Below are positions 2,674 through 37,851 of a DNA stretch of 64,000 nt, piece after piece; position 1 is the stretch's first letter, and each line of letters opens with the position of its first letter. Position numbers and translations under genes: made by a program. The DNA is from a virus, in the IMG/VR virus record IMGVR_UViG_3300029404_000062. One strand, given 5' to 3'. The notes under the pieces were generated by a model. That model did not search any database and had not been told where the DNA came from. It saw nothing but the letters and a program-made list of their open reading frames with translations.

Positions 2674-4059
2674 TTAAACAGCGTAACCCTTGTTCTTAAT
2701 GACCTCCACGACCTGAGAGACGTACTTCTGGCAGGTGTCGTGGTCGGGGGCTTCCACCATCACGCGCACAAGCGGCTCAGTGCCGGACTCACGGACGAGG
2801 ATACGGCCGGTATCGCCCAGTGCTTCTGCAACGGCCTTGACGGCCTCCTGCACCGCCGGGTCGTTCTGTGCGGCCTTTTTGTCGGTGACGCGGACATTCT
2901 CCAGAACCTGCGGATAAATCTTCAGGGGCTCAGCCAGCTTGCTCATAGGCATCTTCTTGGCCAGCATAACTTCCATCATCTTGAGACTGGTCAGGATGCC
3001 GTCACCGGTGCTGGCGTACTTAGAGAAGATGATATGACCGCTCTGCTCGCCGCCGATACGGCAGCCGTTCTTAGCCATGTACTCGTAGACGTACTTGTCG
3101 CCCACAGCAGTCTTAGCGTAGCCAATGCCCTGCTCATCGAACGCCTTGTAGAGGCCAAAGTTGGACATAACAGTCGTGACTACGGTGTTGTTCATCAGCT
3201 CGCCGTGCTCCTTCATGTAGCAGCCGTAGATGTACAGAATGTGGTCGCCGGTGATGACATTGCCTTTCTCGTCCACGCACAGGCAGCGGTCAGCATCGCC
3301 GTCGAAGGCAAAGCCGACATCCAGACCGTTCTCCACCACAAACTTCTGCAGACCCTCAATATGGGTAGAGCCAGCATTGTTGTTGATATTCAGGCCATTG
3401 GGCTTGTTGTTGATAACATAGGTATCTGCACCCAGAGCATCGAAAACACTCTTAGCGATATTCCAGCTTGCACCGTTGGCACAGTCCAGACCGACCTTGA
3501 CGCCTTTGAAGGAGTAGATACCCAGAGAAATCAGATAACCCATATAACGGTTGCGACCTGCCACATAGTCCACCGTACAGCCGATGTGCTCGCGATGGGC
3601 AAAGGGCAGCTCCGGCCAGTCCTTATCAAACACATGAAGCTTGCCGTCGATGTAGTCCTCCACCAGCAGCAGAGTCTCTTCGGGCATTTTCTCGCCGTAG
3701 CAGTCGATCAGCTTGATACCGTTATCGTAGTAGGGGTTGTGGCTGGCAGAGATCATGATGCCGCAATCGAAATCGTCCACGCGGGCAATGTAAGCCACAG
3801 ACGGCGTAGTAGTGACGTGCAGCAGGTAGGCGTCTGCGCCGGAAGCGGTCAGGCCAGCGACAAGACTATATTCAAACATATAGGAGCTGCGGCGGGTGTC
3901 CTTGCCGATAACGATACGGGCAGGCTCGCTGTTGCCGTTGCGCTTGCGGAGCATATTATAATACCAGCCAAGGAAGCGGCCAACTTTGTAGGCGTGGTCG
4001 GCAGTCAGATCAATACCAGCTTCACCACGGAAGCCATCAGTTCCAAAGTACTTTCCCAT
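2674..4059 (-). CDS. glmM: Phosphoglucosamine mutase-like phosphohexomutase.
   Basis: N-terminus MGKYFGTDGFRG and active-site loop GIMISASHNPYYDNGIK (phosphoserine motif) are GlmM hallmarks. Product is ~460 aa. In-frame upstream extension of ORF 2674-4122 ignored; start at MGKYF has RBS GAGGTAA. Confidence 0.75.
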   Translation of the reverse strand: MGKYFGTDGFRGEAGIDLTADHAYKVGRFLGWYYNMLRKRNGNSEPARIVIGKDTRRSSYMFEYSLVAGLTASGADAYLLHVTTTPSVAYIARVDDFDCGIMISASHNPYYDNGIKLIDCYGEKMPEETLLLVEDYIDGKLHVFDKDWPELPFAHREHIGCTVDYVAGRNRYMGYLISLGIYSFKGVKVGLDCANGASWNIAKSVFDALGADTYVINNKPNGLNINNNAGSTHIEGLQKFVVENGLDVGFAFDGDADRCLCVDEKGNVITGDHILYIYGCYMKEHGELMNNTVVTTVMSNFGLYKAFDEQGIGYAKTAVGDKYVYEYMAKNGCRIGGEQSGHIIFSKYASTGDGILTSLKMMEVMLAKKMPMSKLAEPLKIYPQVLENVRVTDKKAAQNDPAVQEAVKAVAEALGDTGRILVRESGTEPLVRVMVEAPDHDTCQKYVSQVVEVIKNKGYAV

Positions 4060-4239
4060 TTCTTGATTACCTCGTTCCCAAAAGTGAACTTTTAATAGTG
4101 TATATGCTTTTCCCCGTCGCACGATGCTACCTGCGAAAAAGCATTGTCATCCGCATAGTGCATCGAATCAGGGACACTGTGAATTTAGTATAGCACAATT
4201 CTTGAAGCAAATCACCCTTTCTGCAGATTTTCTCCCTGC

Positions 4240-4292
4240 AGACACACAAAAACACCCTTCCTCTCACGGAAACCCGCAAAAGGAAGGGTGTT
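4240..4292 (-). terminator. Rho-independent terminator downstream of the GAPDH remnant, minus-strand sense.
   Basis: Stem ACACCCTTCC...GGAAGGGTGT followed on the minus strand by a TTTTTGTGTG run. An adjacent second hairpin TCTGCAG...CTGCAGA is present. Confidence 0.55.
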
Positions 4293-4402
4293 AAACTCAT
4301 TATCCTGTTGTCATACCGATCACAGCATATTCACACCAGCAAAGCCGGTATCAGCCGTTATTCAGCACGGCACCTCAAGCACTTTTGAGCGTAGAGCTGT
4401 GA

Positions 4403-4511
4403 TTAGCAGTTCTCAGCGAAGTACTTAATGGTACGGACCATCTGAGAGGTGTAGGAGTTCTCGTTGTCGTACCAAGACACGACCTGAACCTGATAGGTGT
4501 CGTCGTAGCTA
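4403..4511 (-). pseudogene. gap: 3'-terminal remnant (last ~36 codons) of the glyceraldehyde-3-phosphate dehydrogenase gene. The upstream body is absent and replaced by an AT-rich junction.
   Basis: Reverse-complement translation gives RSYDDTYQVQVVSWYDNENSYTSQMVRTIKYFAENC*, the canonical GAPDH C-terminus (VVSWYDNE, YFAE). Reading upstream hits an in-frame TAG at 4512-4514, followed by non-coding AT-rich DNA. Confidence 0.7.
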
Positions 4512-4845
4512 CGCTAAATTTTCACGATTTTTTTGTGATCGTTCATAATTTCGAAACAACAGTTACAGTACCACAGCATACCGTTGTCGTACCAAAACCG
4601 GCTTGTTCGTACCAAAATTATACCACGTTTAGGCGTTATTTTCAAGATCTTTCGCGATTTTGTGTTTTAGAATTATTCTATACATTTTACTTCTTTTTAC
4701 GTGCATATAATTTTCACATAGTATCGTGTACTCCTCGGAGCGTCCGGGACCCGGGGCTTCCGCCGGGGCGTTCGCCCTGCCCAGATGCGCTCCTCAGGGT
4801 GGGTGTGATGAGGGGTTGGATGATTCTGTTCGGTCTCCACGATCT

Positions 4846-5194
4846 CACGCTGAAGAGCATCGTACTGCTGCTGGGTGATCTCACCGTTGGCAAGCTGCTC
4901 ATTAGCCTGCTGTGCGGCAGTCTTCAGCGTTGCCAGCTTTTCCTTGGTGGCTTCAATGGCATCCTTGAGCATCTTTTGCTTCTGGACGACCAGTTCTGTA
5001 TTGGAGGGGTCCAACTTCAGGAGTTTGTTGACATCCTTCAGTCCGGACTGCGTCCCCTTGATTGACTTGTTTACACTTTCCAGTGCTTTGGAGAGCTTTG
5101 TGGTATCGCCGCCGATCTCAACGGTGATGCCCTGGATTCTGGATGCCATTTGCGTAACCACCTCCTCGCAGGCATGAAAAAAGCCCATCTGCAC
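4846..5194 (-). pseudogene. Duplicated 5' fragment of the tape-measure gene (first ~116 codons). ~96% nucleotide identity to 36010-36383, then diverges into an unrelated tail.
   Basis: ORF 4697-5194 translates to MQMGFFHA.EEVV..MASRIQGITVEIGGDTTKLSKALESVNKSIKGTQSGLKDVNKLLKLDPSNTELVVQKQKMLKDAIEATKEKLATLKTAAQQANEQLANGEITQQQYDALQREIVETEQN, identical to the TMP N-terminus at 30429-36383. Similarity extends 16 bp upstream of the ATG (GCATGAAAAAAGCCCATCTGCACG.AGCAGACAGGCTAAA). Confidence 0.8.
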
Positions 5195-5292
5195 GAAGCA
5201 GACAGGCTAAAGGAAAAAATGCTATTAGCTGTGTATCAAAGTCATCCTTTCAGCATACAATATATTTATCAGCAAATTTATCGACTAACCGG

Positions 5293-5321
5293 TTGATATT
5301 TTTGCAAACGTGTGCTATAAT
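5293..5321 (+). promoter_or_regulatory. Near-consensus sigma-A promoter upstream of the antitoxin gene.
   Basis: TTGATA, 17-nt spacer, TATAAT, followed by RBS AAAGGAG 10 nt before the ATG at 5348. Confidence 0.55.
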
Positions 5322-5347
5322 GCAATCAAAGAAAGGAGTTGACGATT

Positions 5348-5677
5348 ATGGCTTCTGTTATGAGTGCTATTACCAACACTGTTCCAATCACCCAATTCAA
5401 CCGTGGTCTTGCCGGAAAAATATTTGAAGATGTCAAGCAGTGCGGTGCCAAGGTTGTTATGAAAAACAATGCTGCCGAATGCGTTCTCATCTCCCCGGAC
5501 GAATATGTCCGTTTAATGGATGAATTAAATGATGCTCGTCTGCTGGCTGTTGCTTCTGAACGTATGGCACACTTTGATCCCACCTCTTTGATTTCTGAGG
5601 AAGAAATGAACCGCCGTCTCGGTGTTACAGAAGACGATCTCGCCGGTTTTGACGAGGTAGAAAGTCATCTTCCTTGA
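5348..5677 (+). CDS. Phd/YefM-family type II antitoxin, orphan: no cognate toxin gene follows.
   Basis: ITQFNRGLAGKIFEDVKQCGAKVVMKNNAAECVLISPDEYVRLMDELNDARLL matches the Phd/YefM antitoxin fold signature. The last ~8 codons run into the ParB-MTase gene fragment. Confidence 0.65.
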   Translation: MASVMSAITNTVPITQFNRGLAGKIFEDVKQCGAKVVMKNNAAECVLISPDEYVRLMDELNDARLLAVASERMAHFDPTSLISEEEMNRRLGVTEDDLAGFDEVESHLP

Positions 5678-5745
5678 CCTCCTTGCTGTGGACCTTGTTG
5701 AACAGGGTCTCAATCTCCGGCGGCTCAAAGGGATCAAAACTTCAG
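5652..5745 (-). pseudogene. ~95-bp internal fragment of a ParB-nuclease/DNA-methyltransferase gene (~88% identical to 60331-60425). Minus-strand translation ...PPEIETLFNKVHSKEVKEDDF.
   Basis: Direct nucleotide alignment of 5652-5745 with 60331-60425 inside CDS 59497-60765. Same orientation as the full gene. Confidence 0.65.
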
Positions 5746-5924
5746 CGTTTTGTATGAGTTCTCGGCATTTTCAGTTCATATAACTGTGAAATACAACCAA
5801 TTTCAGTGCCCTATATAGTGTGCAAAACAGGTTCTTTTCGACATTGCTACGTCAATATGGTTTGTTGAGTAGACATTTCTGGACTAAAAATGCGGCGGCG
5901 TAGTTGCTCGACAGGGGCGCAAAA

Positions 5925-6842: not shown

Positions 6843-7559
6843 TCAATCTGTTCCGGCACTCTGCCCGACTTCGGGGACCGCTTTCCCTGTCAGTATTCCC
6901 ATTGACACATATTCGTCCATCTGCTGAACTTCGGATTCCTTCAGATGTTCTTCTACAGGCACGCCAAAAGTACCCGCAATATCATCCGGGTAAAATCCCT
7001 TTCTGCTGCTTGCAGGCTTTTCTTCTGGTGTGTTATTCGGAGAATCGGCGGCACCTTTCTTCCGTCTCTGTCCTTCATGGAAAATCTCAGGCACGAGCAA
7101 ATCAAAGACATACAGGGTTTCACCCTCAAAGGTGATCCTGTATCCCAGCATCTTGTACCGGCATTCGCTATCCCAGCCCATCTCCTTATAGACCAGCTCG
7201 GCAAAAGGCTTGCAGGACATTTTTCTGCTCTTTCGCTTATCCGGTTTTGCAACGCACCAGCGCAGAGCGTCTTTATCATTTTCATCACAGCCGCGCACGA
7301 CAATTCGCTTCAAGTCACTGTTGAACATGACATGAACATAGACCACATCTTCCAGACCAGTAATGCAGGCCGTGTTGAATGTGATGCTGTCCTTGCGGAT
7401 CACGATGGCGGGGTCACGAAGATGAGCAAACAACTCTTTTCGCACGACCTGATATCCATCATACGAAAAGGTACTCTCCAGTTCTTCTGCTCTTGTGTCT
7501 CTATCATTTTGTTCTGCCTGCTCTTCTGATGGCAGAATTACAGTATTTTCCTCATTCAT
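6843..7559 (-). CDS. Stand-alone paralog of the serine-recombinase C-terminal domain (DUF4368-like). Overlaps the stop of recombinase 1 by 8 nt.
   Basis: YDGYQVVRKELFAHLRDPAIVIRKDSITFNTACITGLEDVVYVHVMFNSDLKRIVVRGCDENDKDALRW aligns along its length with the rec1 C-terminus (LTGYEVVRAQYFSTMQNPAMTIFNGKLRFNTACLKKFETVEYVELLLNSVDRCVAIRPCEKSNPNAIRW). Confidence 0.55.
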   Translation of the reverse strand: MNEENTVILPSEEQAEQNDRDTRAEELESTFSYDGYQVVRKELFAHLRDPAIVIRKDSITFNTACITGLEDVVYVHVMFNSDLKRIVVRGCDENDKDALRWCVAKPDKRKSRKMSCKPFAELVYKEMGWDSECRYKMLGYRITFEGETLYVFDLLVPEIFHEGQRRKKGAADSPNNTPEEKPASSRKGFYPDDIAGTFGVPVEEHLKESEVQQMDEYVSMGILTGKAVPEVGQSAGTD

Positions 7560-9393
7560 CTATTTCAGTCCATCCTTCCATTATCTCTTCCGCTTCATGG
7601 AGCAGCGCATTCAGACTATCTGCGGTAAATGTATTCATTTCTTCTATCTCTGTTGCCGGCCGAAGCACATCCCAGTTCCCGGCATAATGTTCCTGCTGTA
7701 AAATACCGACCTGCGCAATACTTGTGATTGGCTGTCCAAAAGTCCCTGCCCATTCCGGTGGGAAAATGTAAATCGTTTTTTTGACCGTTTCGCCCTCTGC
7801 TTCTTCCGAATTTTCCTTTGGCGGCAGAACGATTTCTTCAACCTTGATCATCTCCGGCTCGTCCAGTTCAAAGAGCATCAGCTTATTATCGCCGTCCTCC
7901 ACGAATTGCCCACGGAACCGATAACGCAGATCTTCATCCCACTCCATGATGTCAAAAAGAGTCTTTGCCAGACCACGGCAGCCAAGTGTGCTGGCACACC
8001 AGCGTCCTTCTTTCAGCCGACCCCAGCGGATTGCATTGGGATTGCTCTTTTCACACGGACGGATAGCAACGCAGCGGTCAACGGAATTTAACAACAGCTC
8101 CACATATTCCACAGTTTCAAACTTTTTCAGGCAGGCTGTGTTGAAACGCAGTTTTCCATTGAAAATCGTCATTGCAGGGTTCTGCATCGTTGAGAAATAC
8201 TGCGCCCGAACCACCTCATATCCCGTCAGGTCGAGCCGTTTTTTCACATCTGCCACGACAGAATCGTCCGGCTCCTGCATCACACTTTCGGATGCTTCCC
8301 GGTATTCTTCAGCCGAAAAGCCTGTCCAGTCCTTATCGAAAGGAACATATCCTCGCAGGATTCCATCATCAACCACGCTCAAAACCGGCAGTGGCCGATT
8401 TTTCCTCGTGTAACTTCTGGATGCTCTCAGGTGATTGGCAGCGTTGAATACATCTCTGGACACGATTGCCTCATGGTGGTCCCGCTGCCGATACTGCGTC
8501 CGATCATTGTTGTTTTTCTTGGATTTATGCGTCAAAAAATTTGGCGTGTAAGTCTTTCGAGCCAGTACATCTCCGCAATGACGCTCATTTGCAATGACAC
8601 CCGCCAATGTGCTCGGATTCCATTCCGTGTTCCCCGGCTTCGTCTTCCGCCCGTATTCCGTTAGGAGTTCTGCAATTTCCTTAAGAGAAAATCCGTTCAA
8701 GTACAGGTAATAAATCACCTTTACCGTCTGGGCTTCCTCTGGGTTGACCACCAGGTTGCCTTCCTCGTCCTGATCATATCCCAGCAGAGCCGGAGTCAGG
8801 AACAGACCACGGCTAAAGCGCCGGTCAATGGACCAGTTCATAATGATAGACTTGGAATGGGATTCTTCCTCTGCCACTGATGCCAGAATGGTAAGAATCA
8901 TGCGGCCATTGCTGTCCAACGTGTAAATATTGTCGGCTTCAAATTTCACACCTACAGGTGGTGTAAGGTTTTTCAGTGTTTCAATTACAGATAAGCAGTC
9001 TACGATATTTCGTGCAAAACGGGCAATGGACTTCGTAAGAACAAGGTCGATTTTCCCGGCCTTGCAGTCCTCAATCAACTGCTGCATTCCCTTGCGATGT
9101 TCCAGGGATGTGCCGCTGATGCCCTCGTCATCGTAGATGCCGACAAATTCCCATCCCGGCTGCGCCTTGATGTATTCAGTATAATAATTCTTCTGAAGCT
9201 CATACGAGGAAGTCTGTTCATCATTGTCAGTGGAAACACGGACATAGGCTGCGACACGCCGAATAGAGGTGCTTTCTTCAAGCCCCTCCACAGTTTTTGC
9301 CGGGATGACTTCCAGTTCAGAGGCATCCACGCCTTTATACCGATCTCTGATTTTTTGCTTGCGGTCTACCGCTTCCACTTCACTGCTTATCAT
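7552..9393 (-). CDS. Large serine recombinase 1 (resolvase catalytic domain + recombinase domain + zinc-ribbon + C-terminal DUF4368-like domain).
   Basis: N-terminal AAYVRVSTDNDEQ (catalytic Ser) ...KSIARFARN. 613 aa. Confidence 0.85.
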   Translation of the reverse strand: MISSEVEAVDRKQKIRDRYKGVDASELEVIPAKTVEGLEESTSIRRVAAYVRVSTDNDEQTSSYELQKNYYTEYIKAQPGWEFVGIYDDEGISGTSLEHRKGMQQLIEDCKAGKIDLVLTKSIARFARNIVDCLSVIETLKNLTPPVGVKFEADNIYTLDSNGRMILTILASVAEEESHSKSIIMNWSIDRRFSRGLFLTPALLGYDQDEEGNLVVNPEEAQTVKVIYYLYLNGFSLKEIAELLTEYGRKTKPGNTEWNPSTLAGVIANERHCGDVLARKTYTPNFLTHKSKKNNNDRTQYRQRDHHEAIVSRDVFNAANHLRASRSYTRKNRPLPVLSVVDDGILRGYVPFDKDWTGFSAEEYREASESVMQEPDDSVVADVKKRLDLTGYEVVRAQYFSTMQNPAMTIFNGKLRFNTACLKKFETVEYVELLLNSVDRCVAIRPCEKSNPNAIRWGRLKEGRWCASTLGCRGLAKTLFDIMEWDEDLRYRFRGQFVEDGDNKLMLFELDEPEMIKVEEIVLPPKENSEEAEGETVKKTIYIFPPEWAGTFGQPITSIAQVGILQQEHYAGNWDVLRPATEIEEMNTFTADSLNALLHEAEEIMEGWTEIDE

Positions 9394-9403
9394 GTACTTC
9401 CTC

Positions 9404-10381
9404 TCATTCTTCCGGCTTTATGCTCCAATACCACTGGCGCATCTTCCGATAGCTTCGGATGCCGAGTTCCTTTTTTGTATTTTCTGCGGTCCTGCGGCTG
9501 ATACCCTCGTCGCTCATCCGCATATAGATTTCCCTTGATCTCATGTCTCCCTCAGAAAGCAACTTTTTGATCAAGTATGCGGCTTTCTCGGACTTCGATT
9601 CAAAATCTGGCATTCCCGGATCTGCGGATGGATCTGGTGTAACCTCACACTCCAACCACTCAAATCCTGCTTCTGCTGTTATGGAGAACCGAATCTCACC
9701 GTCTGATGGAGCCAGACTATTTTTGATCTGCCGAACAATACGGATGTCTGTGTTTTCCGGGTCGCGCTCTACTTGCAGGACACTCCGGGCCGCAGCCACG
9801 ACATCAATACTGCCCAGGCTCCGGTACAGACCTTTGGTTCCTTCCTTTTTGTTGAGATGCCCAATCAGCACAATGGCACAATCATATACGGATGCCCACA
9901 TACCCAGCCGGTGCATCAACTTTCTTGCTCTGCCCGCAATCTGAAGGTCAGAATCGCTTCCAAGATATGCCTGAATCGGATCGATGACTACCAGACGCGG
10001 CCGGAATTCTATAATAGCCTGCCGGATGCGTTCATCATCCAGCGTCAGCCCGCTGTATGTATCTTCATTTATAAATGCCACATTCCTGCAATCCGCACCG
10101 CACTTTTCCAGTCTGGGCTTGATGGTATCTGACACACCGTCCTCCGAACACTGGTAGATGACTTTCTTCGGCATCCCGATTGGTTTTCCATCCGGGGTGT
10201 TCCCGCCTTTAGAAAGTTCCGCAATCAGGTTCATCATCATTGTGGATTTGCCATCTCCGGGATCTCCTTGCAGCAATGTGATCTTTCCAACTGCAATGAA
10301 CGGATACCACAGCCAGCGAACAGAAGTCGCCTGTACATCACTATATAATGTAAGAATTCCTGTTTCACCTTTTCCTGCCAT
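9404..10381 (-). CDS. RecA-like P-loop ATPase (AAA_25/RepA-like) with C-terminal DNA-binding-like tail. Co-operonic with recombinase 1.
   Basis: Walker A GDPGDGKS and Walker B-like RLVVIDPIQ. Start at MAGKGETG has RBS GGAAAGGAAAG. Its stop lies 11 nt from the rec1 start. Confidence 0.6.
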   Translation of the reverse strand: MAGKGETGILTLYSDVQATSVRWLWYPFIAVGKITLLQGDPGDGKSTMMMNLIAELSKGGNTPDGKPIGMPKKVIYQCSEDGVSDTIKPRLEKCGADCRNVAFINEDTYSGLTLDDERIRQAIIEFRPRLVVIDPIQAYLGSDSDLQIAGRARKLMHRLGMWASVYDCAIVLIGHLNKKEGTKGLYRSLGSIDVVAAARSVLQVERDPENTDIRIVRQIKNSLAPSDGEIRFSITAEAGFEWLECEVTPDPSADPGMPDFESKSEKAAYLIKKLLSEGDMRSREIYMRMSDEGISRRTAENTKKELGIRSYRKMRQWYWSIKPEE

Positions 10382-10631
10382 CGTCTTTCCTTTCCATTTG
10401 CAGTCTTTTCCTACATTTATATTATAGAGAATGCGTGACGATTTGGCTTCCACCTGTCAGGTGGAGTAACACCAAAAATTCCACTTGTCAGATGGAAAAA
10501 TCGCCTAAGACCACATTACCGATGGAGGTGCGGACTATTGCGGTCTTAGAATCTCCTATATTCAGTTGCTATGTGCATCTTCCTGCGAGATAATCGAACT
10601 GCCTTATGCGGGTATCATAAGGAGGAAACAC

Positions 10632-10973
10632 ATGGCAATCGATTATATCGCACTTGGACAGCGCATTAGCGATTTTAGAAACAAACATAATTTTTCACAG
10701 GAGGAGCTTGCTTTCCGCAGTGGCGTTGGAAACAAGCATATCAGCAACATTGAACTTGGAAAAGGAAAACCGAGTCTGGAATCTCTCGTCCAAATTGCAA
10801 ACGTTCTTAATGTATCCGCAGATGACCTGCTAGTGGACAGCCTTACACACTCTACTTCCACTGCTGACACGGAGATTCACCGTCTGCTCTTAGACTGTAA
10901 CGCAATCGAACAGGAGATTCTCACCCGGATGGTAAAGGAGATGAAAGCAATCCTCTACGGTTTGGGAATCTGA
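10632..10973 (+). CDS. XRE-family helix-turn-helix transcriptional regulator.
   Basis: FSQEELAFRSGVGNKHISNIELGKGKPSLESLVQIANVLNVSADDLL is a classic HTH_3 motif. Only plus-strand gene in the island. Confidence 0.7.
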   Translation: MAIDYIALGQRISDFRNKHNFSQEELAFRSGVGNKHISNIELGKGKPSLESLVQIANVLNVSADDLLVDSLTHSTSTADTEIHRLLLDCNAIEQEILTRMVKEMKAILYGLGI

Positions 10974-11665: not shown

Positions 11666-12817
11666 TTAGTGTATTGAAGCAGCCAAATTTTTCTTCAAGC
11701 GCATATATGCCTCATATGCAGGAGTTGTTCCCTCAAGAAAACCGCTTTGATAGGCATCACTCTTTTTAATGTCATTGCGCTTTAAAATATTGCTCAAGTT
11801 ATCAGCTGTGATTCCGTTACGGTTTCTAACGATATAGATTCCATCATTTCGGTCATATTCATCCAGCAATTCTGGATAGTGCGTTGTAAAAATCAGTGTT
11901 CCACCGTTTCTGTTCAAACGGCTATCCATAAAGAAGCGTACTAAAGTCGTGACAATTTCTTTATTAAAATGGTTTTCGATTTCATCCACCAGAAGGTATC
12001 CACCGGACTGAAGAACCTCTTTTACCATTGAAAAAGTAATGATACCCTTGATTGTGCCGGAAGACAGATACTGTTCAAGATCCACTGCATTGTTCAAAGT
12101 GATCTCATCTTCACCCTTAAATTTCAGGTGAATAAAGGTTTTTCCATCTGTTTCTTCAAAACACAATTTTTCAATGGTCGGATCAAGAAAAGCTATCACT
12201 TCGAGTGGGATGTCATCTGTAAATGGAAGGACATTCACATTTGTATAAGAAAGCAGGCTGAATACTTCAACCTTATCATTTGTCTTTTTATTATGAGCAA
12301 TAATCAAGCTAACATCGTCCGGAAGGAACGCTTCATCATTATTCCGAACTGCAGCCGGCTCTATTCCGGTAAAATCCGTCAGATATTTTTTCGACTTTAC
12401 GCTGGCAATCGGTTTCTCCCACATTTTTTCGGCCAGAATAGAGTAATTATAATCTCCCGCTTTTGCTTTCTTTGCCACAATCACAGTCTCCAGGCAGCAG
12501 ACGTATTTGCGTTCATCATAAAAATATGTGCGAATCGTTGCCTTCTCAGTTCCTCCAAGAATGCTCTTTGCTTCCACATGATTAATGGGCTCATTTTTAA
12601 CAATGCTCAAGGCCAGATTGATAACTTTCAGCACGGATGTTTTTCCAGACGCATTGATGCCAATAAAAGCACAAGCGGAATGAAGGTAGTAATTATCCTT
12701 CATCCTATACAGGCGATCTTTATCATCCTCACTTACACGCTGTTGGGTATAAAAGCAGATATCAAGATCTTCCTTAAACAGTGGAAGTCCTTGTGCCGTG
12801 ATACGAAGTATTTTCAT
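11666..12817 (-). CDS. AAA_21/ABC-type ATPase (OLD/AbiL-like ATPase component).
   Basis: Walker A GINASGKTS, Walker B LLVDEIENHF, followed by TTHYPELL (H-loop). 383 aa, low GC. Confidence 0.65.
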   Translation of the reverse strand: MKILRITAQGLPLFKEDLDICFYTQQRVSEDDKDRLYRMKDNYYLHSACAFIGINASGKTSVLKVINLALSIVKNEPINHVEAKSILGGTEKATIRTYFYDERKYVCCLETVIVAKKAKAGDYNYSILAEKMWEKPIASVKSKKYLTDFTGIEPAAVRNNDEAFLPDDVSLIIAHNKKTNDKVEVFSLLSYTNVNVLPFTDDIPLEVIAFLDPTIEKLCFEETDGKTFIHLKFKGEDEITLNNAVDLEQYLSSGTIKGIITFSMVKEVLQSGGYLLVDEIENHFNKEIVTTLVRFFMDSRLNRNGGTLIFTTHYPELLDEYDRNDGIYIVRNRNGITADNLSNILKRNDIKKSDAYQSGFLEGTTPAYEAYMRLKKNLAASIH

Positions 12818-13518: not shown

Positions 13519-15819
13519 TCACACAGCTTCTCCACGTTCCCGTTTTGCAGCGGTCGTCAGATACCGGCGATACTGGATGCTGAAGCCATGCACTTTGTAC
13601 GGTGCATCCACATACACCACCGTACCGTTGAGGTCGCTCCGCTTGAATCCCATGAAGCTGGTCAATGTTCTGCGATTGCCCTTCGTCGTCAGCGTTACAC
13701 CGAAGTTCGTCTTGTAGGTGATGATATCGCCCTGCACCACTCCACTCTCGATGAAGGCGCAGTAGATACCTTTCTCAAAATGAAGCATATCTGGGGATTC
13801 GGCGATTCGCTCTGGTGTCAGCTTCAGCTTGCCCTTGGTCACAGCGGACACTCGCCCTTCAATGACCTTACCGTCCACATCTCTCAGAAGACTTCCCTGC
13901 ACATCCAGTCCGTTGACCTTCAGCGGCATTCCGGCCGCGTTGGTATCCGGCAGTTCTTTCAGGCAGGCAAGGAAATATTCAAAGTTCTTCTTCATGATCG
14001 TCAGCACACCCTGCTCTGCCTCGATGGTCTGCTGCTCATGGCGAAGCGTCTTGATGCGCTCCCGCAGGTCATTTACCAGCTCTGTGTAGATTTGGGCCTC
14101 CGAGCCTTCCTCTGCCGAAATCTCATAAAAGGATGCTCCGATGCTGTTCGGGGTCAGCCCGTTCCGGATGTCCGTGTCGATGTCATCGATTGTCACCTCG
14201 CCGTTGGAAAGGGCATCCTTCAGTTCCGCATTATCTTCCAGAGCGGCTTCCCGCAGGGCTGCCACCTGATGGCTGACTGCATCCTGCAGGCGTTCTTCCA
14301 GTTCTTCGATCTGAGAATTCACCGTCTGAAGCCGCTGTACCGAGATGCTGTTGTTCTTTGCCTGCTTCATCGCCTGTTCAAAAGCGTTGTCGAACAGGGT
14401 CACGATCATGGATGCATCGCCGTGCTGTTCGTAATCCCGCTTCATGCTGTAAAGCAGTTCCATGAAGCTCTGCTCCAAAGCGCATTCATAATAGGTTTCA
14501 GAAGGACACCGTTCATTGGCGGCTTTCTTTTCCGCATCCGACATACATCCCTTTTTGCTGCGACAGTACATTTTCTGGTCGGGGCTGCCATTCTTGGGCG
14601 GTGCGTCCTGCCGTTCTCCTGCCTTCCGCTTGCACTTCCAGACAGGATAGGAATAGCTGTACTTTTCGAGGAATTCACCCGTATCCTCCCCTGTCGCTTT
14701 CAGGCTCCTCTCATCCGTGTAGCCATTTGCCACGCCAGTGTACGTCACACGAAAGAATCCTTCACCACAGGGCTTTCCGGCATCCGGTCCATGCTCAAGG
14801 ATTGCCCCACAGCGCAGATTTCCAAAAGGTGAGCCTTTGATGGTGCGGGTCTTTTTCTTTCCGGGACCTTTCGTCATATCCGTCCGGGGCTTCTCGAACA
14901 AAAGCGTCTGCACCTTATCCCAAGTCACCCGGTCGATGATGCCTACATGGTGGTTCTTGACATAGTACCGGGGTGCTTCACCCTTATTGATGCTGGAACG
15001 GTGTGTCAGGAAATCCTTCGTGATGGTCTTCTGCATCTCCACATCGCCTACATATTTCTCATTCCGCAGAACGATCAGGATGGAGCTTGCCCGCCATTTC
15101 TTTCCGTTCACAGTCGTCTTTCCCAGCTCGTTCAATTCTTCTGCGATTTTATTAGCGGTCTGCCCCTTCACGAAGCGTTCAAAGATGTACCGCACCACCT
15201 GCGCCTGTTCCGGTACGATCACCCACTCCTGATTCGGTCCCAGATCATACCCCAGCATCCGCTTCAGATTGATATGCGGAACGCCCGCCTGGAACTTCTT
15301 CTGGATACTCCAGCGGATGTTGTCCGAAATGGAACGGCTCTCATCCTGTGCCAAAGCGGAAAGGATGGTCAGGATCAGCTCGCCTTTGGCATCCAGCGTA
15401 TCGATATTTTCCTTCTCGAAGTACACACCCACAGGCGGCTTCAATTGCCGAAGCTCACGGGTACAGGTCAGGGAATCGATCGTGTTTCGTGCGAATCGGG
15501 AAATGGACTTCGTGACAATGTAGTCCAACTTGCCATCCATCGCGTCCTTCATCATGCGGTTGAATTCCTCACGGTGCTCTCTGTTCGTGCCGGATTTAGC
15601 TTCATCGGCATAGATGCCTGCAAAGATCCATCCAGGTTTTCCTGTAATCAGGTTCTTGTAGAATGCTTTCTGGGTCGTGTAGGATGTCTGCTGGCTTTCA
15701 TCGCCAGTGGACACGCGGCAGTAAGCCGCCACACGGATGTTCGTCTGCTGTTTCAGCTGTCCGCCATTCTGCACTGATCGCACACTGGCAGGGATCACGT
15801 CTACTTTTCTCTGTGCCAT
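13519..15819 (-). CDS. Large serine recombinase 2 (766 aa).
   Basis: AAYCRVSTGDESQ...KSISRFARN resolvase domain; long recombinase/zinc-ribbon/coiled-coil C-terminus. Confidence 0.85.
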   Translation of the reverse strand: MAQRKVDVIPASVRSVQNGGQLKQQTNIRVAAYCRVSTGDESQQTSYTTQKAFYKNLITGKPGWIFAGIYADEAKSGTNREHREEFNRMMKDAMDGKLDYIVTKSISRFARNTIDSLTCTRELRQLKPPVGVYFEKENIDTLDAKGELILTILSALAQDESRSISDNIRWSIQKKFQAGVPHINLKRMLGYDLGPNQEWVIVPEQAQVVRYIFERFVKGQTANKIAEELNELGKTTVNGKKWRASSILIVLRNEKYVGDVEMQKTITKDFLTHRSSINKGEAPRYYVKNHHVGIIDRVTWDKVQTLLFEKPRTDMTKGPGKKKTRTIKGSPFGNLRCGAILEHGPDAGKPCGEGFFRVTYTGVANGYTDERSLKATGEDTGEFLEKYSYSYPVWKCKRKAGERQDAPPKNGSPDQKMYCRSKKGCMSDAEKKAANERCPSETYYECALEQSFMELLYSMKRDYEQHGDASMIVTLFDNAFEQAMKQAKNNSISVQRLQTVNSQIEELEERLQDAVSHQVAALREAALEDNAELKDALSNGEVTIDDIDTDIRNGLTPNSIGASFYEISAEEGSEAQIYTELVNDLRERIKTLRHEQQTIEAEQGVLTIMKKNFEYFLACLKELPDTNAAGMPLKVNGLDVQGSLLRDVDGKVIEGRVSAVTKGKLKLTPERIAESPDMLHFEKGIYCAFIESGVVQGDIITYKTNFGVTLTTKGNRRTLTSFMGFKRSDLNGTVVYVDAPYKVHGFSIQYRRYLTTAAKRERGEAV

Positions 15820-15861: not shown

Positions 15862-18210
15862 TTACTTTCTCCGAATCTGCTTCACATACTGCTTTCTCTG
15901 GCTTCCATTCCGCATCACATGACCATCAAAGTAGCTGGCAGTGTAGCGGTAATCCTCGATGTTGGTATCCATCTCAACTTCCGTTTTGGTGTCATCGAAC
16001 CAGTGGATCGTGTACTTCAGCGGAGAATGGATAGTCATCGAAAGGATAAATGCCTTGCAGTGTTCCTGCGTCATACCGTTCAGAAATTCTATCATTCCTT
16101 CCCGTCCTGCCGGAAGCTGTTTCATCCATTCGAGGGCTTTTTCTCGGCGGTCATAATCCTGTTCCAACTCTTCCCAGTATTCTTCCAGATAGTCAAGCCG
16201 TTCTGTCAGTTTCTGTTCCGATTCTTCGTCTGCTGCTACCGCCTGTTCCAGCTTTTCAATCAGCTGTCTCTTTTCCTCAATGGTGGCTGCATCGATCATC
16301 TCATCACCCAGAAGTTCCAGTCTGGTTTGCATAACATCCACCTGACTCTTCAGCAGACGGATTTTCTTATTCGTGCTCTCGATACTGAGATGGGCCGCCG
16401 AAATCTGCTTTTTATAAAAGGCACGGTCACGTTCCATGAAGTCCAGCTTCTGTATGCTTTCCAGCCGCGACAACATCTGGCTCACAAAGCTGTCCGCTTC
16501 CGGGGTGAAATTTTCATACTGCTCTTTGAACCGTCCACTCATGATGTCTGCAATCTTCACATCATCGTGGATCGGTTTGACCGTCAGCCGGAACCGTTCC
16601 AGAACACCTTTTCGGAATACGCGGATGATCTGTTCCTCATACACCTTTTCTGCATGACAGATCCTCTTTCCATTATTCTGATTGCTGGAAGGGCAGAACC
16701 AAATCGTGTTGCTCCCGCTTGAGTTTCTTACATTATAAAATCGTCCGCATTCTCCACAGATGAGTCTTCCGCTAAAAGCCTTCGGTACATTTAATTTTCC
16801 CAGCCCCCTGCCGTAGTAAGAACTGTTCATTATTCGTATCTCTTGTACTTTTGCAAACAATTCTTCATCGATAATTGCCGGGTGATGGTCTCTGACCAGA
16901 TATTGCGGAACTTCTCCATTATTTATCCGTCTTTCATGGTTTAAGTAGTCCGTAGTATAGCTTTTTTGAATCCGGACTGCCCCTGTGTAACGCTCCGCAC
17001 GAATAATCTGCCCGATCTGCCGTCCAGTCCAGCCATCTTCCAACACACTGTTGAGCTGTCCCTTTTTTGAATTTTTCTTTCGGGCTTCCACTGCCTTTGT
17101 TCGCGGTGGTGGAATTCTATCAAAATTCAAGCTCCTGGCAATCTCTGTATATGCCTTACCTTCCAGAACTTCATGGAAGATTCGCCTGACCACCGCCGCT
17201 TCCTCTTCAACGATTTCAATGTCCTTATACTTATATCCACTTTCAAGGGTAATGACCTTTCCATTGTAGCGGTACCCATAAATGACCGCATTCCTGACTT
17301 CTCCCTTTGGAAAGCGCATCTTATTTCCAAGATTGATATTGCCGGAAATACTCCGACTCTCTTCCTGGGCGATTGCCGCCAGCGTAGTAAGGATAAAATC
17401 ATTCGTCGGGTCAGCGGTGTCCAGATTTTCCTTTTCAAAAAGGATCGTCACGCCACTGTCATGCAGGGCATCCAATGCTTCCATGAAATCTGCCGTGTTC
17501 CGTGCAAAACGGGAAATGGACTTGCACACAATGCGGTCGATTTTTCCCTCTTTGCAGTGCCGGAGCAGTCTGCGGAATCCGGTTCTATTTTCTCTGGATG
17601 TACCGGAGATGCCGTAATCTGAGTACACACCAACTGCATTCCATTCCGGATTGCTTTCAATCAGCTGGTTAAAATAGCGTTCCTGTGTTTCGTAGGAATT
17701 TTCCTGATCACTCGAATCTGTAGAAACGCGGATGTAAGCAGCCACCTTCAGACAGCCATTTTTCTTTTTCGTTGCACGGAACGTAGCCGTGGAGATGAAT
17801 CGGTTGTCCTGTTCCTGTGGTTCTTCATCTGCATGAAAAAGCTGTGAGAACTCACTCTGCATCCCGCTCTGTACTTTTTCTGCGATGTCCGGCTGTGCCA
17901 TGACTTTCCTTGCCGCCAGCGCATTCTGAATCAGTGCGGTAATGCCGGGGTCTACTACTTCTTTTGGTTTTTGTTGAGTAGACCTGTCCTGTTGCGTGTC
18001 AGTCGAGGGTAAAAAGGAAGCCGTGGCAGCTTCCGTACTCTGACGGACTCCTGCCACAGCTTCTTTCGGTTTAAGGGCTGCTGCCAACAGAGCTGAAACA
18101 TCCACGGCAGATGCCGTTTCTCTCTTTTTCTGTTTCTGCTGGACGGTATTTTTGACCGTTGCTTTCTGTAAACTTGCCAGAAAATCAGTTCCTGCACTCA
18201 TAATCTCCAC
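15862..18210 (-). CDS. Large serine recombinase 3 (782 aa) with a ~140-aa N-terminal extension.
   Basis: VAAYIRVSTDSSDQ...KSISRFARN; CGECGRFY zinc-ribbon. Confidence 0.85.
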   Translation of the reverse strand: MEIMSAGTDFLASLQKATVKNTVQQKQKKRETASAVDVSALLAAALKPKEAVAGVRQSTEAATASFLPSTDTQQDRSTQQKPKEVVDPGITALIQNALAARKVMAQPDIAEKVQSGMQSEFSQLFHADEEPQEQDNRFISTATFRATKKKNGCLKVAAYIRVSTDSSDQENSYETQERYFNQLIESNPEWNAVGVYSDYGISGTSRENRTGFRRLLRHCKEGKIDRIVCKSISRFARNTADFMEALDALHDSGVTILFEKENLDTADPTNDFILTTLAAIAQEESRSISGNINLGNKMRFPKGEVRNAVIYGYRYNGKVITLESGYKYKDIEIVEEEAAVVRRIFHEVLEGKAYTEIARSLNFDRIPPPRTKAVEARKKNSKKGQLNSVLEDGWTGRQIGQIIRAERYTGAVRIQKSYTTDYLNHERRINNGEVPQYLVRDHHPAIIDEELFAKVQEIRIMNSSYYGRGLGKLNVPKAFSGRLICGECGRFYNVRNSSGSNTIWFCPSSNQNNGKRICHAEKVYEEQIIRVFRKGVLERFRLTVKPIHDDVKIADIMSGRFKEQYENFTPEADSFVSQMLSRLESIQKLDFMERDRAFYKKQISAAHLSIESTNKKIRLLKSQVDVMQTRLELLGDEMIDAATIEEKRQLIEKLEQAVAADEESEQKLTERLDYLEEYWEELEQDYDRREKALEWMKQLPAGREGMIEFLNGMTQEHCKAFILSMTIHSPLKYTIHWFDDTKTEVEMDTNIEDYRYTASYFDGHVMRNGSQRKQYVKQIRRK

Positions 18211-19898: not shown

Positions 19899-20609
19899 TT
19901 AAGGAATCAGCAGCTTCATGCCGACCCGGATGGCATTGGAGGTCAGACCGTTCAGCGAACGAATCTCTCCGTAGCGAGTACCATCTCCCAGCTCCTTCTC
20001 TGCGATCTTCCAAAGATTGTCGCCGGGATGCACCTCATAGATCTTGCTGGCAGTAAACGCATAGGTATCGGCACTGTTGAGGACATACGCCAAACCATTC
20101 TCTGCCTCCGGGCATTTGATCTTCAGCCAGCCATCACAGAATTCCGCGATTTCCACAATGGTGTTTTTCTTGTAGACCGTTACGACCTCGGATTCAAGAT
20201 CCGGACTGGTGCGGATATTCATGAGCGTCTTGAGCTTACCGTAGGCAATAGTCGCCGGAAGTTCCTCTGCAGTCGGGAACTCGACCTCATCCACAGGCTC
20301 TTCTTTCTTATCCGCTGGCTGCTCTCCCGCCTCCGATTCTTCCACAGGACTTTCCGGTTCCTTCTCCTCCGGCTTATCCAGTACCTCTCGCTCCTCGTTA
20401 TCCTCTGCTCCCGTAACAGGCACGGCTTCCTCCGGGTAGATGACATTACCGTCATTGTCAAAAACACGGCTGCCCGGATTCTCATCACACTTTGCTTTCG
20501 CGTTTGCCAGCAGCCGGTATGCGCCAAGCTGGGAGGATTCATCTTCCCAATCCACCCGCACACGGTAATAGCCGGTCGTCAGCTTTGCAGGGTATTCTTT
20601 CTTACTCAT
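19899..20609 (-). CDS. Cell-wall-binding protein: N-terminal SH3b-like repeat, acidic linker, C-terminal LysM domain.
   Basis: YYRVRVDWEDESSQLGAY (same repeat type as the lysin) and C-terminal YEVHPGDNLWKIAEKELGDGTRYGEIRSLNGL...GMKLLIP (LysM). Confidence 0.6.
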   Translation of the reverse strand: MSKKEYPAKLTTGYYRVRVDWEDESSQLGAYRLLANAKAKCDENPGSRVFDNDGNVIYPEEAVPVTGAEDNEEREVLDKPEEKEPESPVEESEAGEQPADKKEEPVDEVEFPTAEELPATIAYGKLKTLMNIRTSPDLESEVVTVYKKNTIVEIAEFCDGWLKIKCPEAENGLAYVLNSADTYAFTASKIYEVHPGDNLWKIAEKELGDGTRYGEIRSLNGLTSNAIRVGMKLLIP

Positions 20610-20661
20610 CTTGTTCTCCTCCTAAAAATAAGGGAGAGGCTGTCACACCTCTCCCAGTTCA

Positions 20662-21090
20662 TCACTGTTCCTCGTTCTCGTGCTTCTTCTGGCTTTTTTC
20701 CTCCTTGAGCTGCGCCAGCATCTCCTTCAGCTTGTCCGGCACCGGAAGACCGATCACCGCCGCATTCTCAAGACAGCTCAGACCTTCATTTGCCAGATAG
20801 AAGAACACCACAGCCGTGCGGATGGCAGAGCCATTCTGAAGCACCTGTGTATCGATGATGTTGGCAATCCCGACCAGCACGAAGATACACACCTTCTTGG
20901 CAATGCCACGGAAGCCGACCTCAGAAGACAGCTCATGCTTGATGGCTGCTGCCAGCACCCCGGTGAAGTAGTCACAGACCACGAACACCACCAAAGCGTA
21001 AAGGAAGCCATCAAAGCCACCGAAGAACCAGCCCAGAAATCCGCCCAATCCTGCGAACATCCATTCAATCTTGTCGATCACATTCTGCAT
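20662..21090 (-). CDS. Holin (TcdE/phage_holin_4-like, multi-TM).
   Basis: Hydrophobic segments GLGGFLGWFFGGFDGFLYALVVFVVCDYFTGVLAAAI and IFVLVGIANII; charged C-terminal tail; located upstream of the lysin. Confidence 0.7.
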   Translation of the reverse strand: MQNVIDKIEWMFAGLGGFLGWFFGGFDGFLYALVVFVVCDYFTGVLAAAIKHELSSEVGFRGIAKKVCIFVLVGIANIIDTQVLQNGSAIRTAVVFFYLANEGLSCLENAAVIGLPVPDKLKEMLAQLKEEKSQKKHENEEQ

Positions 21091-36453: not shown

Positions 36454-37851
36454 TTACTTGTAAAGGTCTTCCAGCGTTATCAGCCGAACTTCACCTCGCT
36501 CTTGTGCCTGAAGAAGTCCATCTGTGAATCCGCCTTTCGAGAAGATATAGTAGTGATAGTTGTTGCCCTTTCCAAAAACTGAAGCATAATCCCGAATCAA
36601 ATCGAGTTCATCCACACCGATTTTCTCATTCCGGTATTTGCATGAACCGATGATATAGTCTTTGCCCTCAACAGGAGTTCCGACGATATCAATCTGTATC
36701 TGCTTTTTCTTCTTCGGGTCTGTCCCCCACCACTGGCCGATTTCACTCAGCTCAATAGGAAGGCTATCCGAATAATAGAGCAGGTAATCCTGACACATCT
36801 TCTCATAAATTAGACCCATGTAATCAGGAAGATACTGCTTTACAGCGTGTGGATAGGTCTTTGCAATTCTGCCAGAGTCAATGGCACTCATATTGATTGG
36901 CACAAACCGATACCAGAAACGGAAGAAGTTATCAGCCAGCAGATAGATGGTTTTCTTACCCGGTTTTTCTGTAATCGGTGTTTCTTTCTTCGCAATGCCA
37001 AGGTCGATCAGCGTTTTCAGGTACTTCGATACGACCGAGTTTTCCTCGCCGACCTTCATCTTGATATCGTTCATTCGGGAAGCACCTTCTGCAATCGCTT
37101 TAATGATTGCATTATAAATGGCCGGCTCCCGGAGTTCCTGCTTCAGTAAGTTCCCCGGTTCCTCATACAGATAGCTGGAGCGGTCAAAGAAATTATCCAA
37201 CAGAGCTTCATCCACACTATCTCGCACATCCAACTTATTGATATAGTGGGGAACTCCTCCCGTGATTCCATAAATCAGGGAATTGTCTTCTGCAGACAGA
37301 TTTGGGTGGAACACAGCGGTTTCTTTATAGTCTAGCGGCTCAATCTTAAACTGTCCAGTACGTCTGCCATACAACGGACTTTCCTTTCCAAGCACCTGAC
37401 TCTCCATGAAGCTCATAGAGGAGCCGCAAAGAATCAGGTACATCTTGGACTCTGTCCATTTGTGGTCGATGATGTGCTGCAGCATCGCTGAAATAGCTGG
37501 TTTTGCTTTTGCAAGATAAGGATACTCATCAATGACAAAGACAATCCTCTTTTCCTTTGAAAGTGCTGTCAGCTCATCCAAAGCTGCATCATAGGACCTG
37601 AACTCCGGTGCAGACTCCATATCCGGCCGCTCAAAACTCATAATCGACTTTGAGAGAGCTTCCAGATTTTCCTTTCCTGTCGTGTTCAATGCAGAAAAGA
37701 AAATGGTAGGCTTATCTTTGCAGAACTCGTTGATCAGTGCCGTTTTACCAACACGCCGTCTGCCGTAGATGACAATGCACTCAAACTTATCACCTGCATA
37801 CCGTTTATTCAGTTTCCGCAGCTCATCCTCACGGCAATAGAATTGACTCAT
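36454..37851 (-). CDS. AAA+ ATPase of the COG1672 type (Arch_ATPase domain + C-terminal DUF234, predicted nuclease-like). Low-GC moron inserted between the tail chaperones and the TMP.
   Basis: Walker A GRRRVGKTAL, Walker B VFVIDEYPYL. ~44% GC against ~57% in flanking phage genes. Own promoter and terminator. Confidence 0.7.
   Translation of the reverse strand: MSQFYCREDELRKLNKRYAGDKFECIVIYGRRRVGKTALINEFCKDKPTIFFSALNTTGKENLEALSKSIMSFERPDMESAPEFRSYDAALDELTALSKEKRIVFVIDEYPYLAKAKPAISAMLQHIIDHKWTESKMYLILCGSSMSFMESQVLGKESPLYGRRTGQFKIEPLDYKETAVFHPNLSAEDNSLIYGITGGVPHYINKLDVRDSVDEALLDNFFDRSSYLYEEPGNLLKQELREPAIYNAIIKAIAEGASRMNDIKMKVGEENSVVSKYLKTLIDLGIAKKETPITEKPGKKTIYLLADNFFRFWYRFVPINMSAIDSGRIAKTYPHAVKQYLPDYMGLIYEKMCQDYLLYYSDSLPIELSEIGQWWGTDPKKKKQIQIDIVGTPVEGKDYIIGSCKYRNEKIGVDELDLIRDYASVFGKGNNYHYYIFSKGGFTDGLLQAQERGEVRLITLEDLYK

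Follow-up and report, generated by a model that had tools for sequence, protein, structure and literature searches.

The window analyzed here is a 64,000-nucleotide stretch from a virus record (IMG/VR IMGVR_UViG_3300029404_000062), and it contains, near its left end, a short 3' remnant of gap, the gene for GAPDH. On one side of the remnant lie the gap terminator and the host gene glmM, and on the other side lie a conserved module, the relic of one phage, and the prophage of another (Table 1). Translation of the minus strand of positions 4403 to 4720 gives ...RSYDDTYQVQVVSWYDNENSYTSQMVRTIKYFAENC. No tRNA or tmRNA gene was found in the 64-kb window.

Table 1. Coordinates of the features at the gap remnant and its surroundings. 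Motif offsets are counted from the first base of the 104-bp core.
Feature	Position in the window	Strand	Remarks
Host glmM (phosphoglucosamine mutase), downstream of gap in the empty site	2674-4059	-	Four of four PGM_PMM domains (Pfam)
Native gap intrinsic terminator (B' side)	4251-4292	-	19-pair stem, then a T run
TATGACAAC, motif-like site in the native gap 3'UTR, offset +191	4307-4315	-	One mismatch; in the window and in empty site L010
gap 3' remnant	4403-4506	-	104-bp core common to attL, attR, and attB; codes for ...DDTYQVQVVSWYDNENSYTSQMVRTIKYFAENC*
TTGGTACGACAACG (WYDN codons) in the core, with the TACGACAAC site at +35	4462-4475	-	Candidate right half of the recombination core
TACGACGAC, one-mismatch motif straddling the junction, offset -1	4505-4513	-	Present, too, in L147 and in L124 and L135, whose arms are unrelated
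Right-end module (P arm), conserved in the islands that target gap	4507-4824	-	About 320 bp, one copy
GGTACTGTAACTG, degenerate site, offset -64	4560-4572	-	Read from the sequence
TTGGTACGACAACG, P-arm site, offset -85 (second copy in the original prediction)	4582-4595	-	-85/-86 kept in the module, L147, L127, L124, and L135
TTTTGGTACGA(ACAAG), P-arm site, offset about -106 (third copy in the original prediction)	4607-4617	-	Less conserved; mutated in L003 and L004
Outward-facing sigma-70 promoter	4617-4645	-	TTGAAA, 17 nt, TGgTATAAT; faces the remnant, towards glmM
GC-rich hairpin element, left part of the module	4732-4824	-	GC 0.70; fold -36.8 kcal/mol
Relic of another phage, between module and prophage	4816-5873	.	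Tape-measure N terminus, antitoxin, methylase fragment
Prophage, outside the gap att site	5876-64000	-	Runs off the window; Pfam

The gap remnant, the empty site, and the right-end module

The original prediction had proposed a comparison with an uninterrupted gap locus. Contig L010 provides one: an intact gap gene (L010:8626-9657; 343 aa) is followed there by the same 3'UTR, terminator, and glmM. The homology of the remnant to this gene comprises exactly its last 104 nt, and from the remnant through the 3'UTR and terminator into glmM, the window and L010 are 98.7% identical over 457 nt. The remnant is therefore real, but the break from gap to foreign DNA, which had been placed at 4512, has to be moved, as gap homology stops at 4506; bases 4507 to 4515 merely prolong the open frame back to a TAG. 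Two further elements of the prediction held up in the same comparison. The DNA upstream of the remnant is AT rich, with a GC content of 34% at 4507 to 4700 versus 49% in the remnant and 55% in glmM, and the native gap terminator is kept beyond the remnant, as it is in the empty site of L010. The gap 3'UTR folds with -66.8 kcal/mol (z = -6.2).

The GlmM protein of the window (461 aa) is found, identical, in 26 contigs from public assemblies and in ten distinct contexts. In nine other glmM contexts, as in the window, homology to L010 begins at one and the same base (L010:9554, corresponding to window 4506), and from that base on, identity to L010 is 97.6 to 99.6%. This contrast between empty and occupied loci indicates that the 3' end of gap is an attachment site and that the remnant is one junction of an element integrating there. 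Relatives of gap among the matches listed in the scan of contigs, from a few Faecalibacterium species, place the host in this genus. Two gap proteins (P0039 and P0015) were set aside; they come from other Faecalibacterium species, with a gap-mutS-like arrangement and without an island. Left of glmM, the window (around 1700 to 2420) lacks about 1.5 kb present in contig L196 (16975-18475), namely, a HATPase_c_5 histidine kinase and part of a LytTR response regulator.

What adjoins the remnant is equally constant. The module is present in all nine occupied loci and in the window, at 89 to 100% identity and irrespective of cargo, and it was also found in L110, L125, L165, L147, and L172. Because they are conserved in nine independent occupied loci, the remnant, the 14-mers, and the module are not a product of chance. 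Beyond the module, the nine loci differ: they continue into polysaccharide-synthesis genes, a serine-recombinase mobilizable element, an element with a serine recombinase and AAA_25, or the prophage of the window. Variable DNA beyond a constant module and remnant identifies these as the constant end of an element with varying cargo. The GC-rich hairpin element of the module (93 bp) recurs at L202:13689-13781 (94.6% identity), where it adjoins the phage end at a great distance from gap, and it is possibly a dispersed repeat or a target for insertion.

The promoter in the module is a strong one, matching 11 of 12 consensus positions and having the TG extension in a promoter scan. Both of its hexamers are invariant among all module variants, whereas adjacent bases vary. 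The same promoter is carried by L165, and the unrelated P arm of L127 carries an analogous one at a similar distance; in the L124-type arm, the promoter scan found no outward promoter. Between this promoter and glmM stands the native terminator. Two other readings of the arm were rejected. A structured RNA was discarded because the P-arm transcript is unstructured (z = -0.13), and a small open reading frame in the arm (MLWYCNCCFEIMNDHKKIVKI) was discarded, as no ribosome-binding site was seen and the frame stops at a TAG before the remnant. An Rfam scan of positions 3900 to 5600 with a permissive E value returned only chance matches (all E > 0.5).

Islands at the 3' end of gap in related contigs

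Can the other end of such an element be found? In contig L011, the sequence after an intact gap consists of a short spacer, then a hairpin resembling a terminator, and the gene for a 303-aa tyrosine recombinase (int). Scanning metagenome contigs with this recombinase yielded 80 loci, with 95 to 99% identity and diverse cargo, and in the metagenome loci, int starts 148 bp past the end of either the full gap or the 104-bp remnant. No promoter was found between gap and int, where the sole feature is a hairpin with a T run abutting the int ATG.

The recombinase matches PF00589 at amino acids 114 to 282 with 109.7 bits (cutoff, 27.1; E = 1.7e-31) and the phrog_1 integrase with E = 1.4e-44. The catalytic residues R, K, HxxR, H, and Y, assigned by eye, lie in GMR, GKGSKER, HTCRH, MGH, and QRY, respectively. 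Scores against TIGR02224 and TIGR02225 were 167 and 163 bits, below the equivalog cutoffs of 335 and 330. Judged by its profile matches (XerC/XerD/XerA-like), the protein is Xer-like in architecture and is neither XerC nor XerD. It has a core-binding and a catalytic domain, and at 303 aa it is too short to accommodate a lambda-type arm-binding domain as well. A second int subfamily, 74% identical to the first, is associated with an unrelated P arm and the same core.

A complete island of 10.96 kb is contained in L172, a related contig that is not from the genome of the window itself. It runs from gap (8821-9852) and int (10001-10909) through cargo to the module (20397-20708), the remnant, and the native flank, and its two 104-bp cores (9749-9852 and 20709-20812) lie 10.96 kb apart. 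Two further parts of the original prediction are thereby supported: the element supplies a replacement 3' end, as evidenced by the 104-bp gap end at both island junctions, and an intact gap occupies the far junction, at least in related complete examples, namely, L172 and 29 to 30 gap-int junctions with a 343-aa gap and a near-identical 104-bp end. The cargo of L172 includes an AAA_25 primase/helicase-like gene, an amidase (Amidase_2), and a glmM paralogue. In a Pfam search of ten of its larger open reading frames, no other recombinase was found, and the same search (ten larger frames of at least 70 aa, in L172 only) found no relaxase, coupling protein, or type IV secretion genes. By the frames searched, L172, the one small island examined, does not qualify as an ICE or IME.

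When classified by their flanks, 69 copies of the core were compared; they differ by 0 to 2 substitutions within the species group, and gap-int flanks were counted 29 times, module-native flanks 12 times, module-int flanks 3 times, and gap-native flanks twice. The stacking of elements at the gap site that the original prediction had invoked is real. In L110, L125, L165, and L147, the module, remnant, and int follow one another, which marks tandem islands, and in L124, gap is followed by an int of the second subfamily, 6 kb of cargo, the unrelated P arm, a remnant, and an int of the first type. In all five contigs, the stacked junctions retain complete 104-bp remnants. About 38 contigs start within the 104-bp repeat because assemblers break at repeated sequence. 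No circular form or attP contig was recognized, as terminal overlaps were found in 0 of the 12 contigs tested; module-core-int joints do occur, and tandem arrays explain them as well as circles do. We infer present mobility from the coexistence of empty and occupied sites and from the tandem arrays.

Some islands have clearly decayed. In L091 (GCA_009741595.1; 10001-11644), gap and a truncated int form one in-frame fusion, followed by polysaccharide genes; this int is missing its first ~27 codons and the C-terminal catalytic part, and the fusion is annotated as one 547-aa protein. The island in L091 is presumably immobile.

Several other observations concern the content of the islands. Full-length glmM paralogues lie inside several of them (L172:18257-19642, L007:5720-7105, and L147:2269-3653), with about 85% DNA identity to the host glmM just outside attR. 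In L006 (1350-8972), a mobilizable element with a 503-aa serine recombinase, Mob_Pre, RepA_N, and an MFS transporter is inserted about 570 bp left of the gap junction, in what is the extended right end of an L004-like island. Two kinds of P' arm, the interval from core to int, occur beside the same int (L119, L122, L124, and L125). Over about 155 bp, the first kind has 85 to 88% identity with the native gap 3'UTR; the second has only the initial bases, the motif pair, and the terminator-like hairpin in common.

Motif array, phage relic, and prophage

The 14-nt string singled out in the original prediction, CGTTGTCGTACCAA, occurs exactly twice in the 64-kb window (4462-4475 and 4582-4595; spacing, 120 nt), and the shorter third copy, TCGTACCAAAA, was found at 4607-4617, as claimed. 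Shuffled sequences gave a mean of 0.26 matches to CGTTGTCGTACCAA even when two mismatches were allowed. The 9-mer that encodes WYDN, TACGACAAC, recurs at fixed offsets. Perfect or one-mismatch copies are located at -85/-86 and -64/-65 in the unrelated P arms of L124, L135, and L127 and at -1 in L124 and L135; the site at -64/-65 is occupied by TACGACAAC or TACGATAAC in L124, L135, and L127. Position ~-106 of the module holds TACGAACAAG. On the other side of the core, the P' arm between gap and int has TACGAACAAG and TACGATAAG 20 nt apart, at about +160 and +180, with TACGACAAC in place of TACGATAAG at the second site in some loci. All motif copies share one orientation. In an attP-like sequence of 614 bp, there were 3 matches with at most one mismatch versus 0.07 in shuffles.

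Copies of TACGACAAC at fixed offsets are probably protein-binding sites, and the protein that binds the TACGACAAC-like array, with its phasing of 20 to 21 bp, is most likely the recombinase or an accessory protein. A 116-aa coiled-coil protein is encoded beside the module. As a candidate for the core itself, we propose the dyad AGGTCGT-GTCTTGGT-ACGACAA. Among the core alleles, the C/T variants at position 32 go with the upstream flank (P = 0.039) and those at position 71 with the downstream flank (P = 0.066), in few and nonindependent samples. This allele linkage weakly suggests an exchange between core positions 32 and 59 (window 4448-4475). Mapping of the crossover by such polymorphisms is only marginal, given how little the 104-bp core varies.

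Between the module and the prophage lies the phage relic. It contains the truncated N terminus of a tape-measure gene on the minus strand, reaching up to 5194 (phrog_5755, amino acids 1 to 109, E = 1.4e-44), and this open reading frame has homology to other islands only from about amino acid 127, the point of its fusion with the module. The relic further includes a Phd-like antitoxin gene (5339-5677, plus strand), which lacks an adjacent toxin gene, and 70 bp of a ParB-methylase gene that are 91% identical to a stretch of the resident phage's own copy.

The prophage encodes an endolysin, tail proteins, capsid, portal, terminase, and methylases (Pfam), along with three large serine recombinases (7552-9393, 13519-15819, and 15862-18210). 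A look-up of the first of these (613 aa) retrieved ten contigs, and all ten share a constant block that consists of the endolysin, two serine recombinases, and an AbiLi-like ATPase, followed by an HTH gene, AAA_25, the third serine recombinase, and genes for proteins of 238 and 156 aa. A look-up of a SAM-synthetase protein indicates that the phage extends at least 10 kb past the right edge of the window; one contig, L195 from ERZ28636455, is identical to the window and appears to end at about the same edge. No close relative was found among the INPHARED phages, searched with 22.7 kb of the prophage. Two candidate defense genes were noted: an AbiLi-like AAA_21 ATPase (11666-12817; PADLOC E = 2.5e-31) with a 172-aa partner, located between the recombinases, and a PDC-S27-like ATPase (36454-37851; E = 2.8e-56) among the tail genes. 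In L197 and L200, 130 bp at the phage end is repeated, with 82% identity, just outside the junction (13558-13686). This suggests that the phage target in these two contigs was a sequence related to the phage's own end.

Interpretation and comparison with known systems

On the basis of these results, we consider it likely that positions 4403 to 4824 are the attR of a family of tyrosine-recombinase genomic islands that integrate at the 3' end of Faecalibacterium gap. In the mechanism we propose, the 303-aa Xer-like recombinase would be encoded at the opposite end of the island, with its start codon directly following a hairpin that resembles the gap terminator, and the attP of the island would hold a duplicate of the final 104 bp of gap. 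Integration would therefore leave gap intact at attL and a 104-bp remnant at attR, before the terminator and glmM. The remnant would itself be usable as a target, so that islands could accumulate in tandem, and further elements would later insert inside or beside an island, as a serine-recombinase prophage and a phage relic would have done in the window. The extra copies of the WYDN string would belong to the island arm, as a same-orientation array of TACGACAAC-like sites phased by 20 to 21 bp, and a protein bound to this array would most likely assemble the recombination complex at a core overlapping the codons for WYDN.

Expression of int may be coupled to the state of the island. The outward promoter of the module would read across the joined ends of a circle into int, and int expression would be high only in the circular or tandem state. 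Once the island is integrated, int would lie promoterless behind the gap terminator, and the module promoter would face the remnant, the native terminator, and glmM; additionally or alternatively, this promoter may feed glmM. In the genome of the window, the int end of the island would lie outside the window. Since some islands have decayed, as in L091, the island of the window could be immobile.

How do other explanations compare? The original prediction had the prophage on the right integrate into gap, with the remnant as its attachment junction. The prophage does lie only about 1.4 kb from the junction, and it fills the rest of the window. However, its end at 5873 to 5876 is 1.37 kb away from the junction at 4506, with the phage relic separating it from the module, and in the ten contigs with the same phage, homology to the window stops at this very position ('...TTTTTAGTCCAGAAA'). 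The phage end adjoins at least five classes of flanks, with no gap core in the contigs outside the window type. An insertion into gap by a serine recombinase would have the prophage end abut the interrupted gene, and it does not; no tyrosine integrase of the prophage was found within the window, and the module with the remnant occurs in at least eight loci devoid of this phage. Integration of the prophage into gap is thus highly improbable, and by its junctions the prophage sits beside or inside the gap island. An intact gap may lie beyond the right prophage end, as had been expected, solely because the remainder of the island should lie there. The original prediction also took the short copies at 4582-4595 and 4607-4617 for decayed att cores of earlier integrations, and we find this improbable as well. 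Stacking does happen at the gap site, the 14-nt identity to the core is exact, and a second short repeat at the same 120-nt spacing (D1/D4, D3) is a possible hint of an old duplication. This reading as scars nevertheless fails because gap homology is absent on both sides of the 14 to 17 nt, whereas the true stacked junctions described above keep the full 104 bp. Moreover, the motif at -85/-86 and -64/-65 is found in P arms that are otherwise unrelated and belong to an int only 74% identical, and copies with a 20-nt spacing also occur in the P' arm.

A different view, which we hold to be unlikely, is that the island is fixed and immobile here, the junction a fossil, and the promoter a means to restore glmM transcription cut off from the strong gap promoter. 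Polysaccharide-synthesis cargo at many loci, which is typical of stable variable loci, would fit this view, as would the decayed int of L091, a promoter directed at glmM with both hexamers invariant, and the lack of a detected circular form among the 12 contigs tested. These points have to be set against an int that is intact and 95 to 99% identical in 80 contigs with diverse cargo, against empty and occupied sites that coexist among strains with an identical GlmM protein, and against tandem arrays, which amount to repeated use of the site; the native terminator also still separates the promoter from glmM.

The attR reading defines gap as a recurrent integration hotspot in Faecalibacterium, a highly abundant human gut commensal, together with an island family that uses the site. 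The cargo of the islands varies, with polysaccharide-synthesis genes, glmM paralogues, and defense genes among it, and the islands host serine-recombinase elements and prophages. The attR reading also explains why metagenome assemblies of this Faecalibacterium species break at the end of gap, and it corrects a tempting misassignment of the prophage integration site. A compact pair of recombinase and att site, with candidate binding sites and a testable promoter-switch design, may be worth trying as an integration tool for Faecalibacterium.

A well-known pattern is that of tyrosine-recombinase elements that integrate into the 3' ends of housekeeping protein genes and bring a replacement 3' end; examples include ICESt3 in fda of Streptococcus thermophilus and the streptococcal ICEs and IMEs in rpsI, rplL, guaA, and lysS. 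Like such elements, the gap islands have their tyrosine recombinase beside attL, use the 3' end of the target as the direct repeat, leave the target gene whole, and accrete in tandem at the remnant. They differ in their target, gap (GAPDH), in the length of the repeat (104 bp plus a diverged 3'UTR), in their short Xer-like recombinase, and in the absence of a relaxase or conjugation gene from L172. Our literature searches turned up no account of gap as an att site. The type of mobile-element junction is itself ordinary, and the concept adds little beyond the known elements that target 3' ends; what appears to be new is the target gene, gap. The motif array at fixed offsets might be the only unusual feature.

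A parallel for the proposed promoter switch is ICEKp1, for which experiments have shown that int is supplied by attenuated read-through out of the host gene in the integrated state and by a promoter at the 3' end in the excised state (PMC13023037, NAR 2026). In the gap islands, int likewise comes right after a strongly expressed host gene and has a terminator-like stem-loop within its 5' leader; the outward promoter, at the other end of the element, would be directed at int only once a circle has formed. In contrast to ICEKp1, the switch in the gap islands is deduced from sequence, the host gene is gap and not tRNA-Asn, and the island is one of Firmicutes with an Xer-like int.

Within Faecalibacterium, tandem and nested ICEs, IMEs, and other mobile elements (matryoshkas) have been described (PMC12084326, Sci Rep 2025), where the naming style IME_..._lysS also occurs. 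That account shares with ours the genus, the integration of elements next to one another at a resident element's att site, and nesting, and one of its tandems contains a prophage. Its main text does not mention gap or glmM as a site.

The array invites a last comparison, as gap islands and integrons both lack an N-terminal arm-binding domain in their integrase. The integron attI site has accessory direct repeats, DR1 and DR2, that are bound by such an integrase. Similarly, extra core-like half-sites in the same orientation lie beside the core of the gap islands. Their sites differ from those of attI in being on both arms, in their phasing of 20 to 21 bp, and in lying up to 106 bp from the identity boundary, and any attI-like binding is a prediction from the sequence. 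It is conceivable, although doubtful, that the Xer-like integrase itself binds these sites without an arm-binding domain, with core-type half-sites reused as accessory arm sites. If true, the att architecture would be an unusual one, built on phased, same-orientation copies of TACGACAAC, a 9-mer coding for WYDN, and it would suggest how the element locks onto the conserved WYDN codons, a target available in many species.
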